A DNA stretch of 64,000 bases, taken from Sedimentisphaerales bacterium. GTDB taxonomy: Bacteria > Planctomycetota > Phycisphaerae > Sedimentisphaerales > SM23-30. Below are positions 53,071 through 60,280 of this stretch, piece after piece; within the stretch, counting starts at the first letter, position 1, and each line of letters starts with the position of its first letter. The stretch spans positions 249,593-313,592 of the forward strand of contig CAXXFK010000010.1 of the NCBI GenBank assembly GCA_963663965.2, given 5' to 3'. Below the pieces are notes generated by a model. The model was given only the letters and a program-made list of their open reading frames with translations. It had not been told where the DNA came from and did no database searches. A program made the position numbers and the translations under genes.

Positions 53071-53327
53071 TATAGAATCTCCGATGAGTCTGAGTTATCG
53101 TTAAGTATTTGTTCAGTATACATAAATAATCAGTGTTACAATTATTGCACTGTCAGACAGGCTATTCCTGGTTAACCCGATCCGCGCTAAAAAATGAGGT
53201 CAATCAATAAGGATTTCGAGGAGACCGATTACAAAGCGGTGGCCGGAATGCGCAGCGGGTCTGGGTGGATTGAGTTTTTTGATCAATCCATGGGTGTTAT
53301 GCTTTAGTTGTGGTGGCTGATGTTATC

Positions 53328-54167
53328 TTATTTTTTATCCTCCTGAATGGGGATATCGGCCGGGGGTTTGGTGGGGATGCCGAGGGCGTGGAGGGCTTCT
53401 TCGCCGTTCTGGTTGGCGAAATCGGTGAGGGCTTCGTAGCGGTTGCAGGCGTAACTGAAGACCTGATCGTCAGTTACGCTGTGGTCTTTCATCAATTCGG
53501 GCAGGCGGTCTTTGATGTATTCGGGGGCGAGTTTGGCTTCGCTGGGGTGCGTGGGGATTTTTGGGGGATCGGGGATGTGGACGCGGGGTAAGTCGGGAAA
53601 TGGGTACGGTGGGGGATAGGCATTGGGTTCGTTTGGAACGGGTTGTAACTGGAGTTGCTGAAGGAGTTTGAGTTTGGCCTGGAAGGTACGGTTGAGGTGG
53701 GTTTCGTAGCGGGCCAGGCAGTTGAAGGCGGGGACTTCGAGGGTGAAAGCCGTGCCGACTTCGTTGTGGCGTGGGAGATAGATGCTGGAGTGGGCGAAGG
53801 GCTGGTCGATGACGGTGTCTTTGCGGATTTCTTCGTTGGTGAGGCGGAGTTTATAGACGCGGGCGTCGACCATTTCGGCTTCGATGCGGCCGAGACGTTC
53901 CAGTCGCCAGGCGGCCGAGACGATCTGGTCGGCGATATGGCGCTGGAGGTAAGTTGTTGGTTTGAGGTCTTGTAACAAAGCGGCGCGGAACTCGAGGTAG
54001 GTGAGTTCGGATTCGCCGGGGACGATGAGGTGGGCGGGGTCCTGGCCGCTGAGGCCGTGTTTGATGGCATTTTTCGATGAGATGGCCTTGCCTTCGGGGG
54101 TTTTGGGGCCGGTGGATTTCTGGGCGTTGCGACGGTTGGCGCGTAGTCTTCTGAGTGACGATGACAT
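53328..54167 (-). CDS. Hypothetical protein of the NRRNAQKSTGP...KHG family
   Basis: GGAGG RBS at 54176-54180, basic N-terminus, helical core (AAWRLERL...EA; LARYETHLNR) and Pro-rich tail with NEPN. Confidence 0.85.
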   Translation of the reverse strand: MSSSLRRLRANRRNAQKSTGPKTPEGKAISSKNAIKHGLSGQDPAHLIVPGESELTYLEFRAALLQDLKPTTYLQRHIADQIVSAAWRLERLGRIEAEMVDARVYKLRLTNEEIRKDTVIDQPFAHSSIYLPRHNEVGTAFTLEVPAFNCLARYETHLNRTFQAKLKLLQQLQLQPVPNEPNAYPPPYPFPDLPRVHIPDPPKIPTHPSEAKLAPEYIKDRLPELMKDHSVTDDQVFSYACNRYEALTDFANQNGEEALHALGIPTKPPADIPIQEDKK

Positions 54168-54303
54168 GGTTGGTACCTCCTGTTTAGAAATTTAAAGTTT
54201 AAAATTTAAAATGCAAAATTGTGGTATCCGCCATTCGGCGGATGTTGGTTTTATTTTAGTTAAGTTTGGTTCGTTGTTCAGGTTAGAGTGATAATTTTTC
54301 ATG

Positions 54304-54618
54304 TTGGCTTCGTTTCGTTTTATGTTGGTATTCGCTGCGCTCATGGCTGGTTTTATCTTTCGCCTCCGGTGCGAAATCCTGTCGGTACGCCTCTACGAGG
54401 CGTGGGTTAAAATTTTAATTTTACGTTTGTTACCCAGGGTGGCGCTCATCCCGTTTTACGGGACTCGCTCTACCCTGGGCTATTTTATGCCGGCCCGTTG
54501 GGCTGCTTTTGGTATCCGCCGGAGGCGGATGATGTTTTTATCTTTCGTTATGTCAATTCAAATTTGAGACTCACAAGGCGATAAATCCACCCACAAGCTG
54601 CGCTTGAAGGTGGCACCC
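54304..54618. repeat. Multi-hairpin repeat unit 1
   Basis: Shares GTTGGTATTCGCTGCGCTCATGG, ACGCCTCTACGAGGCG, ATCCGC..GCGGAT and CAAG.TGC.CTTG blocks with units 2 and 3. Confidence 0.9.
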
Positions 54619-54670
54619 ATAACGGTATAAACATTTGATATTGATAAGGTTATGGTGATGTTTTTTGTCA

Positions 54671-54986
54671 TTGGGTTTGTTTCGTTTTGTGTTGGTATTC
54701 GCTGCGCTCATGGTTATTTTATCTTTCGCCTCCGGTGCGAAATCCTGCAGGTACGCCTCTACGAGGCGTGGGTTAAAAAATATACGTTTCGGGTTCGGGT
54801 ATTCCCGCCAATGAATTGGCGGGCTATGCGCTTTTGATCTCCTCCTGAGGCGGACCTGCGGTCTTCGAGATATTATTTGAATCCGCCTTGAGGCGGATGT
54901 TGTTTTTATTGTTGATAAGCTCAGTTCACATTGGAGTTCACAAGGCGACGAATCCACCCACAAGCTGCGCTTGAAGGGTGCCACCC
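54671..54986. repeat. Multi-hairpin repeat unit 2 (tandem, 367-bp period)
   Basis: Direct repeat of unit 1 with a different central hairpin module. Confidence 0.9.
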
Positions 54987-55009
54987 GGCACACAGCTTAA
55001 CCCCCAAAA

Positions 55010-55303
55010 ATGCGCAGAGAGGTTCTGCGGGCGTGGGCGATTGGGGCGGGGCACGCCGTGGTTGGTCGGGTGGTTCGGGGGCTTTTTAGTCGACTTTGGG
55101 ATTATAGACCGAGTTGCAATTAAAATCAAATTAAATATTATGTTTTTATTTTATTTAACATAATATTTATGGGTTTATGTTTATGTGACAGATTAGTATT
55201 AGAAGGAAAATTCGTCTGACAGATTCTTAATAGTCTATTTTTTAATGATTTATGTTGATTTCAGGAGTTGTCAACAAAATAATATACACTGTGTTTAATA
55301 AAG
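55010..55303. repeat. Non-coding control block, copy 1
   Basis: Colinear similarity to 59760-60051. Confidence 0.88.
55101..55129 (-). promoter_or_regulatory. Sigma70-like promoter pointing into the repeat units
   Basis: Minus-strand TTGATT-17 nt-TATAAT. The TATAAT is conserved in copy 2 (59851-59856). Confidence 0.6.
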
Positions 55304-55673: not shown

Positions 55674-56162
55674 TCCGCGTGGGCAGTGCCCCCACACAAA
55701 TTGTATTACTGGTTAATACTTAGATATTTATTATGATTATCGGATGTATCAACAAAATAATATACACTGTGTTTTGAAATGACACCTGTTTTTATAAGGA
55801 TAGCAAAGTAGCCGCCGTGCTGATAAGAGGGGAAAAGGGGACATTCTGTTTTCTTTCCTGCCATCGCCTTTTTCAGGATTAAACTTACAGTCATTATGCC
55901 AAGGAAAGCCCGGGCCAATCGCATAGCGTGAGTACCGTTAGGATGAGGCATGTAGTATTCAACAGATTTAAACTAATAAAATATTTCATGGTGACAGTTG
56001 ATGAGATACAAGATCATAAAATTTGTGATTCTATTTATTATTCTTGCCATTATCATACCACCATTTATAGGCCTGGTATTAAATAGTCATCATTCTATTC
56101 GAAAAAACAAATATCTTGCTACATTTAATGTATCACAAATTGATAATGGAGTTGATTTTAAA

Positions 56163-57487
56163 GGTTCTTCCGAAAAATGAGTAGTTAATGTTGCAAAAAG
56201 AGAGACATGACTTTACTGTTTGAGGAAAAAAATAAAACCTCATATTAGGAGCTAAAGTCATGTCCACAAGTATGTTGTATCATACTTTTGGTGTTCGAGG
56301 TGTTCAATACCAAAAGACAGAATATTTTTGCGGGCAAGAGCGTGATTCACGGCATCTTGCCGGCGGATAGTCTGCGTTGCCCTTGTTGTAACTCCCGTAA
56401 TTTCATTTACTTCGGTCACAAGGCCCGGAGGTTTGCCATGGTACCCGCCGGTCTGCGTCAAATGGAGTTGCTTGTCACTATTCCCCGATTGAAATGTCTG
56501 GCGTGCGGGGCCATTCGTCAGCCTCATCTGCCATTTGCCGACCCCAAGAAGCATTACACCCATGCGTTGGAACGGTATGTCATCGATTTATGTCAGGCGG
56601 CTTCCCTGCAAGAGGTGGCCCGACGGACCGGCTTAAGCTGGGATACCATCAAATCGATTCATAAGTCCTGGCTAGGTCGACGGTACCGAAAGATTTCCCT
56701 GAAAAAGGTTCGTTATCTGGGGATTGACGAATTGTATCTGGGCAGGAAAAGCAAATACATCTCGCTGGTAACCGACCTGGAAAGCGGACAAATCTTGCAT
56801 ATCGGCCAGGGCAAAGGCCAAGAGGCCCTGGTGGGATTCTGGGGGCGTGTCCGACGCAGCCGGGCGGTGATTGCCGCGGTGGCTACCGATATGGCCAGTG
56901 GTTTTATGACCAGTGTCCTGAAAGAACTGCCGCAAGCCAAACTGGTGCTGGACCATTTTCATCTGGTCAAATGGTTTAACGACAAACTGACCAGTTTACG
57001 CCGGGATTTGTACCGGGAGGCCGATACCATGGGCAAAGCGGTACTTAAAGGCAGCCGCTGGCTGCTGCTCAAAGCGCCGGAGAACCTTAAATCCCATGCC
57101 GATAGCGCCAAAGATGAACGGCACCGGTTGCAGGAGGCTCTGCAACTCAACCAGCCGCTGGCCACCGCCTATTACATGAAAGAACGGCTCCGTCTCCTTT
57201 TTGATGCGATCACGGCTCCGCTGGCTGAACAGGAACTTAAACGCTGGATCAGCCAGGCGCAAACCAGCGGGATTCGGATCCTGCTGGATGCCGCCAAACA
57301 ACTGCAACTCTGGAAACCCTTCCTGCTCAATTGGTATGACCATCCCATCAGCACCAGCAAAGTCGAAGTCAATAACCGTAAAATCGGCCTCCTGCAACGA
57401 ATGGCTCATGGCTACCGCGATCAGGAATACTTCTATCTCCGGATCCATCATATCCATAACCAAAACTACTCATTAACCGGATGAGCC
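56163..57487 (+). mobile_element. ISL3-family insertion sequence (1325 bp)
   Basis: Imperfect terminal IRs GGTTCTTCCGAAAAATGAGTAGTT / GGCTCATCCGGTTAATGAGTAGTT. 8-bp TSD ATTTTAAA at 56155-56162 and 57488-57495. Confidence 0.95.
56260..57484 (+). CDS. ISL3 transposase (apparent frameshift near 56325-56329)
   Basis: CPCC...CLAC zinc finger, LGIDE, ATDM, DHFHLV, VEVNNRKI and AHGYRD. The RBS-led start MSTSMLYHTFG is out of frame by one base. Confidence 0.9.
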
Positions 57488-59287: not shown

Positions 59288-59438
59288 CGACAAAGAGTAT
59301 CTGTTTTGATTGGTTTTTCTCAATGACTGGGAATTTATCAATGCATGTTGACGACGAAAACGGTTGTTATTACCATCAGGGGACATGAGAGGTTGATGGA
59401 ATTTTAATTTCATAGTGAAAAGAAGTTCCTACTTTGAA

Positions 59439-59748
59439 ATCGTTTTGTATTGGTATTCGCTGCGCTCATGGTTGGTTTTATCTATCTCTTTTGCGAGATA
59501 TCCTGTCGGTACGCCTCTACGAGGCGCGGGTAAAAAAATTTAATTTCATATTCGTTACCCAGGGTGGCGCTCATCCCGATTCATCGGGACTCGCTCTGCC
59601 CTCATAGGCTGTTTTATGCCGGCCCGTTGGGCCGCTTTGGGTATCCGCCTGCCAGCGGATGTTGTTTCGATATTTTGTTAAGCTCGATTCAAATTGTTGG
59701 AATCCACAAGGTAAGGTAATAAATCCACCCCCAAGTTGCACTTGAAGG
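59439..59748. repeat. Multi-hairpin repeat unit 3
   Basis: Diverged copy of unit 1 with compensatory stem changes. Confidence 0.88.
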
Positions 59749-59759
59749 CGCTACGGACT

Positions 59760-60051
59760 ATGCGCAGAGGGGCTCTGCGGGCGTGGCCGGTTGGGACGGG
59801 ACACGCCGGGGGTTGGCGGGTGGTTCTGAGGCTATTCAGTCGACTTTGGGATTATAGGCCGGGTTGCAATTAAAAGAAAATTAAATATTATGTTTATATA
59901 TTTTATAACAAAATATTTGTAGTTTTATTTTTTTCGGCAGATTATATTAGAAGGAAAAATCGTCTGTCTTGTTCTTAATGTTTTATCGGTTAAAGAATTA
60001 TGTTGATTTTGGATGATGTCAACAAAATAAAGGTCACTGTGTTTTATAAAG
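59760..60051. repeat. Non-coding control block, copy 2
   Basis: Colinear similarity to 55010-55303. Confidence 0.88.
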
Positions 60052-60280
60052 ACCCGGACGAATACCGTTCACCTGGATACCAGTCCAGTCTCACTCAAGG
60101 GAATTGGTTTTCTCTTCAATTCTATCTGAACCGCTCTATGACCTGAAAAAAGCACTCATCCACATCTGGTTATCTGACAAGCCATTATATCATAATATAA
60201 AATTTATTTTGAAAGCGAGTTTTGCCTGGATATATTTATGATATAGTATGTCATTTATATATCCAATACTGGAGGAAAAT

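Follow-up and report, generated by a model that had tools for sequence, protein, structure and literature searches.

In a 64,000-nt stretch of the genome of a Sedimentisphaerales bacterium (genome G000; assembly GCA_963663965.2, contig CAXXFK010000010.1, positions 249,593 to 313,592 of the forward strand; hereafter the window), the minus strand of 53328..55303 carries a gene for a 279-aa protein behind a leader of about 0.9 kb made of hairpin modules. All features of this cassette were read on the minus strand, and coordinates are those of the window. The promoter, the leader hairpins, the two tandem multi-hairpin units, the extra hairpin, the GGAGG and the gene that an earlier note on this DNA had described were all found in the sequence (Table 1). 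The cassette appears to extend from about 55303 to 53249. It would comprise two sigma-70-type promoters, the long leader and the gene, followed at the 3' side by a stem-loop and the terminal TGCGCA.

Table 1. Features of the cassette and of a gene-less second copy in the window (UTR, untranslated region; REP, repetitive extragenic palindrome; ORF, open reading frame).
Feature	Position	Strand	Basis or genome position
Cassette 5' edge with motif ACACAGTGTATATTATTTTGTTGACA and promoter-like TTGACA-18-AATCAT (55274-55245)	55245..55303	-	Copy comparison, promoter scan
P2, promoter-like site TTGATT-17-TATAAT	55101..55129	-	10/12 consensus positions; kept in other copies as module P2
Leader L1 with terminator-like hairpin CGCAGAACCTCTCTGCG and T-run at 55029-55013	55005..55094	-	Recurs in other cassettes
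Array unit 1: A (REP), B (ATCCGCC hairpin, 54881-54898), C1, D1 (GCCCGCCAATTCATTGGCGGG), E (ACGCCTCGTAGAGGCGT), F (TTCGCACCGGAGGCGAA), Gm (CCATGAGCGCAGCGAATACC), signature-like core AAACAAACCCAAT	54627..54993	-	
Array unit 2: A, B, C2, D2 (nested hairpin), E, F, Gm, degenerate signature	54260..54626	-	
Third B hairpin (54226-54243) and A/T-rich 5'UTR module U, GGAGG at 54180-54176	54168..54250	-	
279-aa gene, ATG at 54167; residues 1-175 conserved all-helical domain, 176-279 variable tail	53328..54167	-	
Family signature AAACGAACCCAAT within the ORF (codons N-E-P-N), where the conserved domain ends	53622..53634	-	G000:C10:303214-303226
3' tail: stem-loop GGATTGA...TCAATCC (53289-53267), end at TGCGCA (53254-53249)	53249..53327	-	
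Second copy without gene: leader and one array unit, stopping inside signature-like core ACAAAACGA	59399..60053	-	

The leader L1 was 90 nt long, and its second hairpin with the T-run scored as an intrinsic terminator. The two array units repeated with a period of 366-367 nt (repeat families D2, D3 and D6) and shared 72% identity across about 345 nt; the tandem arrangement noted earlier thus held, with this period in place of the unit length of about 315 bp given for it. The period was missed by Tandem Repeats Finder. Module B (ATCCGCC-loop-GGCGGAT) was present in three copies, the second at about 54514-54530. Each array unit in the window also ended in a degenerate copy of a short signature, and in unit 1 an exact match to the signature was located at G000:C10:304262-304274. 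The promoter scan of the region returned 10 promoter-like sites, against 2.2 ± 1.5 in shuffled sequences.

The A/C-rich linkers of the earlier description were confirmed, and the A/C-rich sense strand was found to span the whole cassette. Across the gene the plus strand had a GC skew of +0.3 to +0.5 and an AT skew of -0.2 to -0.39, and the third codon positions of the gene were 61% C and 11% G. The folding energy was further from shuffled sequences on the minus strand (z -6.55) than on the plus strand (z -3.89); since both strands folded better than their shuffles, folding alone picks no strand. Searches of Rfam at gathering thresholds gave no match in the window and none in 20 homolog loci. 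Module C2 gave weak plus-strand matches to the Acido-Lenti-1 RNA (RF01687) at 54473-54505 and 59600-59634, which are copies of one module and not independent; membership in this RNA family was rejected, with 25.1 and 17.5 bits lying below the gathering threshold of 37.

A tblastn search of the 7.24-Mb assembly revealed 26 full-length copies of the gene on 19 contigs, with 93-100% amino acid identity, as well as one 3' gene fragment and one 5' stub of 22 residues. The same leader and array preceded all 26 copies, with a varying number of units. With the leader as query, 325 blastn high-scoring segment pairs were obtained, and about 16 further clusters in the genome consisted of arrays or array pieces without the gene. 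The 26 copies were flanked by unrelated host genes (sulfatases, glycoside hydrolases, RecA, SRP54, alanyl-tRNA synthetase and others), and the gene content, with N_methyl proteins and numerous sulfatases, looked PVC-like. At 5 of the 26 loci a transposase or transposase-type domain was found among the two nearest ORFs on each side, and these belonged to four families (ISL3 twice, DDE_Tnp_1, IS66 and an HTH_32 ORF); no recombinase family was common to the 26 loci. The earlier suggestion of an undescribed, mobile-element-like locus agrees with these dispersed intact copies and with a protein that no family library recognises.

Comparison of the copies showed that similarity began near GGYCTTTATAAAACACAGTG and ended just past the stem-loop GGATTGA...TCAATCC at TGCGCA, which gives the cassette a discrete 3' edge. 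This stem-loop sits about 13 nt before the terminal TGCGCA and about 18 nt before the cassette end. By hand count, the stem was retained through compensatory changes in several copies; the counts of G-U pairs (8) and A-C pairs (13) did not decide the strand, and RNAalifold returned no structure from the gapped alignment of the 3' tail. The contigs assembled from the two DNA runs that covered the stretch showed only copy-to-copy differences and array-length joints, and gave no usable junction evidence.

The gene copies differed by about 7% in nucleotides. Over 325 pairs of the 26 copies, the synonymous divergence (dS) was 0.28 and the ratio of nonsynonymous to synonymous divergence (dN/dS) was 0.095 (0.064 in the N-terminal domain and 0.159 in the tail), which shows that the gene is under purifying selection.

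The array of the window was cut into 13 modules and mapped back on the genome, which gave 417 matches. The order of modules followed a simple grammar, [A]-(B-C1-D1 or B-C2-D2)-E-F-Gm-signature/linker, repeated 1 to 4 times, and arrays split by insertions were longer. Every module was oriented in the same direction as the gene. The modules lay almost exclusively inside arrays: A in 23 of 27 matches, B in 71/72, D1 in 40/43, D2 in 30/31, E in 80/80, F in 41/46 and Gm in 85/98. Stems and loops were nearly invariant while the linkers drifted; set against a gene dS of 0.28, this indicates that it is the sequence of the modules that is being kept. The array is a natural system of modular, sequence-invariant hairpins on linkers that are unable to base-pair.

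Module A (GGTGCCACCTTCAAGCGCAGCTTGTGGGTGG) is a REP, and the RAYT (REP-associated tyrosine transposase) to which it belongs is encoded in this genome. On contig C30 of this genome, inverted A-like copies bracketed an intact Y1 ORF of 191 aa (L069:1324-2064), and in the relative G029 inverted copies of module A flanked a 190-aa ORF that matched Pfam Y1_Tnp. In related genomes, modules A, Gm and B with U were also found singly or within other repeats. The array upstream of the gene, specific to this lineage, is therefore a repeat-module mosaic similar to bacterial interspersed mosaic elements (BIMEs).

Several further occurrences of single modules were recorded. In the relative G019, whose complete genome lacks the gene, the Gm core of 20 nt (CCATGAGCGCAGCGAATACC) was present with 100% identity within a 528-nt tandem non-coding repeat (L055, G019:C1:2512000-2517500, about 2376-2923), and the same core was found at several other sites of that genome. 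The B hairpin followed by ACCACAATTTTGCATTTT recurred between genes in the relatives G022, G030 and G039 (L059, L060 and L061), with one copy directly upstream of a ribF-like gene; this pair may be a terminator/promoter module common to the order. In several units (G000 arrays on C12, C32, C36 and C42), a hairpin of about 33 nt (TTGAGCACAGCGAAATCCCGATCTATCGGGAAA) split the signature precisely, with AAAACG on one side and CCCAAT on the other, which makes the signature look like a target into which a mini-module inserts.

Larger insertions were seen as well, and the arrays seemingly draw them. Identical genes for a 398-aa ISL3 transposase lay beside the cassette (56288-57484) and inside a split array on C28 (L178:2272-3465), and a 475-aa ORF with no Pfam match adjoined arrays on C3 and C36 (L160:5024-6451 and L182:5022-6449). 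The earlier note had stated that no transposase explains the array. An ISL3 transposase gene does lie about 1 kb away, but it is an independent insertion sequence (IS) outside the cassette. Motif ACACAGTGTATATTATTTTGTTGACA, which ends in a -35 hexamer, occurred in the window at 55245-55303, 55720-55783 and 59990-60053. It was found at 46 sites of the genome, 33 of them outside arrays, before unrelated sequences and at least two other multicopy elements, and it looks like a genome-wide promoter, upstream element or regulator site.

The hairpin units had been proposed as the cognate partner of the protein. Within this genome the modules are tied to the arrays of the gene, as set out above; across the family the proposal failed. 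No hairpin modules were found upstream of the gene at any of 10 homolog loci in order-level relatives. Of 21 more distant loci from GTDB, 12 had an upstream gap shorter than 200 nt, four had one of 300-400 nt and four one of 570-780 nt, with one locus unjudged; no gap reached 0.9 kb.

The feature that recurred lay 3' of the conserved domain. A k-mer count revealed AAACGAACCCA just 3' of the domain in six GTDB loci of different phyla. Among 64 evaluable metagenome loci (80 loci taken), 32 had the signature AAACRAACCCAAT just 3' of the domain, on the sense strand and between +420 and +1300; the signature was also present at 5 of 10 loci of the order relatives. In the metagenome loci, 69 matches fell within the 49.5 kb 3' of the domain and 4 within the remaining 163 kb of the same loci; the rest of each locus was used as the control here, the reversed-pattern control being unclean in low-complexity arrays (17 matches). 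The signature often occurred as tandem copies of 10-11 nt that bound units of about 90-100 nt. With the hairpin units missing from homologs and this 3' array present, it is the signature array that the family shares instead. A full-text literature match on the letters of the signature gave only unrelated papers among the matches listed, apparently primer coincidences; the protein family itself was not searched in this way.

In the cassettes of the family elsewhere, G/T-rich repeats lay upstream of a consensus promoter, and the 5'UTR contained short-period repeats. Across the family, the domain was richer in C than G and in A than T on its sense strand (median skews -0.20 and +0.20). The neighbours at 24 metagenome loci were housekeeping genes, and no recombinase was found nearby at any of them. 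Among 16 more distant GTDB loci, 5 adjoined recombinase, integrase or primase genes (L002, L015, L016, L017 and L034), and a sixth (L031) adjoined RecT/YqaJ recombination genes. The ORF calls in all homolog loci were mechanical.

In this genome the exact 13-mer AAACRAACCCAAT occurred 112 times. Genes contained 21 of these sites, arrays or the flanks of cassettes another 21, and the remaining 70 were grouped in 47 clusters elsewhere. Among the relatives, G030 had 128 sites, G021 65, G035 23 and G009 10, while each of the other 36 had 0 to 2; the reversed pattern of the signature occurred 0-2 times per genome. Over these 41 related genomes, the gene was present in 4 of 5 with at least 10 signatures, against 5 of 36 with at most 2.

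Genome G030 had 2 gene copies and 128 signature sites in about 45 clusters. Six clusters, picked for having four signature sites each, were examined, and all six had the 3' unit arrays of the gene cassette. Four of the six also had the full cassette promoter, with a remnant ORF of about 35 codons where the gene would be, and the other 2 stretches started inside the promoter. At two of eight G030 elements looked at (L153 and L046), the 3' end abutted the 3' end of an oppositely directed tRNA gene. The 47 clusters of G000 outside cassettes (e.g., C1:206415-206616 and C20:16033-16792) had a common order, with a TTGACA-type promoter, GGGCCGCCCA, about 80 nt of A/C-rich sequence, CC-AAACGAACCCAAT and ...CATAAC...ATAA, often followed by G/T-rich CTTCGTG hairpin blocks. 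These short signature elements may be the genome's own family of gene-less elements.

The 279-aa protein has a basic, helical N-terminus with the motif ANRRNAQKSTGPKTPEGK..S.NA.KHG. A resemblance to HGGxSTG domains and the small subunit of terminase had been suggested for this motif; it was not borne out, with no Pfam, NCBIfam or PHROG family at E ≤ 1 and no PADLOC match. An exhaustive profile search revealed 52,054 representatives (clusters at 50% identity) at E ≤ 0.001, of which 10,535 had E ≤ 1e-30. An indexed search gave 955 matches; none of the 120 listed had a Pfam domain, and among the matches listed most lay on contigs of about 1-2 kb. Conservation covered residues 1-175, with N11, R12, N14, A15, S18, G20, P21, N33, G38, P70, W87 and R91 invariant, and the C-terminal tails were variable and of low complexity.

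The AlphaFold2 model (mean predicted local distance difference test score, pLDDT, 76.9) was all-helical, with a long helical hairpin at residues 73-118 and 145-174. A sequence-profile search of the PDB gave only a designed helical protein (E 0.47), and the ESM Atlas returned only unnamed Acidobacteriota clusters. Among the 15 longest of the top 150 relatives, 14 had no Pfam domain and one had a glucosaminidase match, which is probably a read-through into the neighbouring gene.

The locus is best read as one copy of an undescribed selfish or mobile family of single-gene cassettes with non-autonomous derivatives, in which the leader array is a lineage-specific repeat mosaic; we give this reading a probability of about one half. 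By this reading the cassette would have spread to 26 places in the genome, and the protein would be the element's own nucleic-acid-handling factor. The signature and the hairpin units would form the amplifiable non-coding part of the element, much as REPs and BIMEs accompany a RAYT or gene-less copies accompany an IS. The family-wide cassette combines a strong promoter with a sense strand rich in A and C and with 3' arrays, in which AAACRAACCCAAT bounds units of about 90-100 nt; it occurs in many phyla, alone between housekeeping genes, and gene-less copies of its ends lie scattered over the chromosome where the signature is abundant. The 0.9-kb leader would be the elaboration of this lineage, a co-oriented, BIME-like mosaic of invariant hairpin modules interleaved with signature cores. 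Tandem duplication has expanded this mosaic to 1-4 or more units, and it is probably carried in the 5'UTR. The leader would be transcribed from P2, and the hairpins could act as RNA.

Several results weigh against a mobile cassette. No empty site, target duplication or terminal inverted repeat was found among the copies, and no movement was observed. The protein had no transposase, recombinase or nuclease fold or motif: a Foldseek search against the PDB was empty at E ≤ 0.001, and VIA-align wide found just generic helical hairpins (Z ≤ 7.6), so that the structural check proposed earlier gave no informative neighbour. The hairpin modules hardly vary, and covariation therefore cannot probe their base pairing. 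The association of gene and signature was counted over related genomes, which are non-independent samples and allow no clean statistical test, and G009 had 10 signatures with no detected gene. In a phylum sample of 150 further genomes, the gene was present in 10, and at least three exact signatures were found in none (0/10 gene-bearing genomes and 0/140 others); amplification of the signature is accordingly confined to some lineages, and the gene often lives without it. The strongest objection is that the copies are old (dS 0.28), strongly constrained and all intact, a pattern that suits a parasite no better than it suits a gene family maintained by the host.

Such a host-maintained multigene family would encode an RNA- or DNA-binding regulator, for instance an antiterminator-like protein with an arginine-rich N-terminus, and the leader would be its own regulatory 5'UTR. 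Transcription would have to pass the leader terminator at 55029-55013, the stability of the mRNA would depend on the hairpins, and transcription entering from outside would be stopped by the B hairpins, which are antisense-oriented. The 26 of 26 intact copies with their low dN/dS despite a dS of 0.28 agree with this explanation, as do the terminator-like leader hairpin on the sense strand, the three terminator-like B hairpins on the plus strand, the invariance of the modules down to their loops, and the basic helical N-terminus, which may resemble the arginine-rich motifs of antiterminators. A host family is nevertheless rather unlikely in our view. The gene had a patchy distribution, being present in 9 of 41 relatives and in 10 of the 150 further genomes of the phylum (11/151 with this one). 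The protein family crosses phyla, on short contigs and between unrelated genes; gene-less derivatives exist; and the expansion to 26 copies was found in one genome only.

Type III toxin-antitoxin systems, or a defence ribonucleoprotein, offer another frame, in which tandem structured RNA units from upstream of the gene, once processed, would neutralise its protein product or act as its partner. The repeats of type III systems are short, and the units of the cassette are about ten times longer. Earlier work on ToxIN, CptIN and TenpIN describes the same gene order as here, with a promoter, tandem structured RNA repeats, a hairpin and a protein gene (PMC3401426, PMC8860590). However, PADLOC, Pfam and NCBIfam gave no match to ToxN, CptN or TenpN, the protein is predicted to be all-helical with no match to an RNase-like fold, the units of 270-370 nt are absent from homologs elsewhere, and 26 copies per genome are unlike toxin-antitoxin or defence loci. 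A relationship of this kind is quite improbable.

A last and very improbable alternative takes the array, read on the plus strand, for a series of small RNA genes that run antisense to the protein gene, each ended by a B hairpin as intrinsic terminator: three B hairpins and one C2 hairpin scored as plus-strand terminators with T-runs, the weak Acido-Lenti-1 matches lie on that strand, and the strand composition would fit dominant plus-strand transcription, but plus-strand promoter-like sites did not occur once per unit, all modules were co-oriented with the gene and a strong minus-strand promoter, the Rfam matches were below threshold, and the minus strand folded further from its shuffles.

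Within the reading as a mobile cassette, we tentatively raise the possibility that the protein is a new class of mobilisation enzyme or nucleoprotein factor, unlike DDE, HUH, serine and tyrosine recombinases. It would recognise AAACRAACCCAAT and the hairpins on one strand, as single-stranded DNA or RNA, and copy whole cassettes, promoter included, and gene-less derivatives across phyla. If true, this would account for the scarcity of G along the whole strand, for the signature arrays on the 3' side and for the existence of tens of thousands of homologs that lack annotation. Even otherwise, an unannotated family of more than 50,000 clusters was found in a recognisable cassette that has a promoter of its own, an A/C bias on one strand, a short repeated signature and derivatives without the gene; this would explain a common cause of broken metagenome assemblies, and the signature can serve as a search key for a large part of genomic dark matter.

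Among known systems, IS elements with their miniature inverted-repeat transposable elements (MITEs) form pairs of gene-bearing and gene-less copies, and IS200/IS605-type elements lack inverted ends. The cassette resembled these systems in that gene-bearing and gene-less copies shared both ends, as seen in the 3' arrays of the six G030 clusters and the full promoters of four of them, and in its strong strand asymmetry. Its ends may also be of the IS200/IS605 type, no terminal inverted repeat or target duplication having been seen among the copies and a conserved hairpin lying just inside the 3' end. Unlike these systems, it encodes no TnpA, TnpB or other known transposase, and its copies were about 7% apart in nucleotides and all intact. 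The Y1 transposases of the genome were considered as possible helpers; the signature was absent from all 9 loci checked of the 11 in the genome.

The REP/BIME and RAYT systems shared further features with the cassette. In both, one gene stands beside its repeats, and the presence of the gene tracks repeat abundance among relatives. RAYTs are flanked by inverted REP copies, an arrangement that was found for module A only (L069 and G029). The 279-aa protein, unlike RAYTs, is not a Y1/HUH protein and had no Pfam match at E ≤ 1, Y1_Tnp included, and true RAYTs lie elsewhere in the genome. Unlike scattered REPs, the modules had 27-98 copies each, 85-100% of them inside cassette arrays, and unlike in REP/RAYT systems the gene exists here in multiple copies, within a cassette that brings promoters of its own. 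Earlier work on REPs and BIMEs describes short palindromic modules in mosaic clusters with a variable number of units, as found here, and BIME modules that alternate in orientation, whereas the modules of the cassette are all co-oriented (PMC2817692, PMC3116915, PMC3733652). If the 279-aa protein mobilises or maintains its repeats, the cassette would represent a second partnership of the REP/RAYT type, one that uses an unrelated protein, and possibly even a new transposition chemistry.

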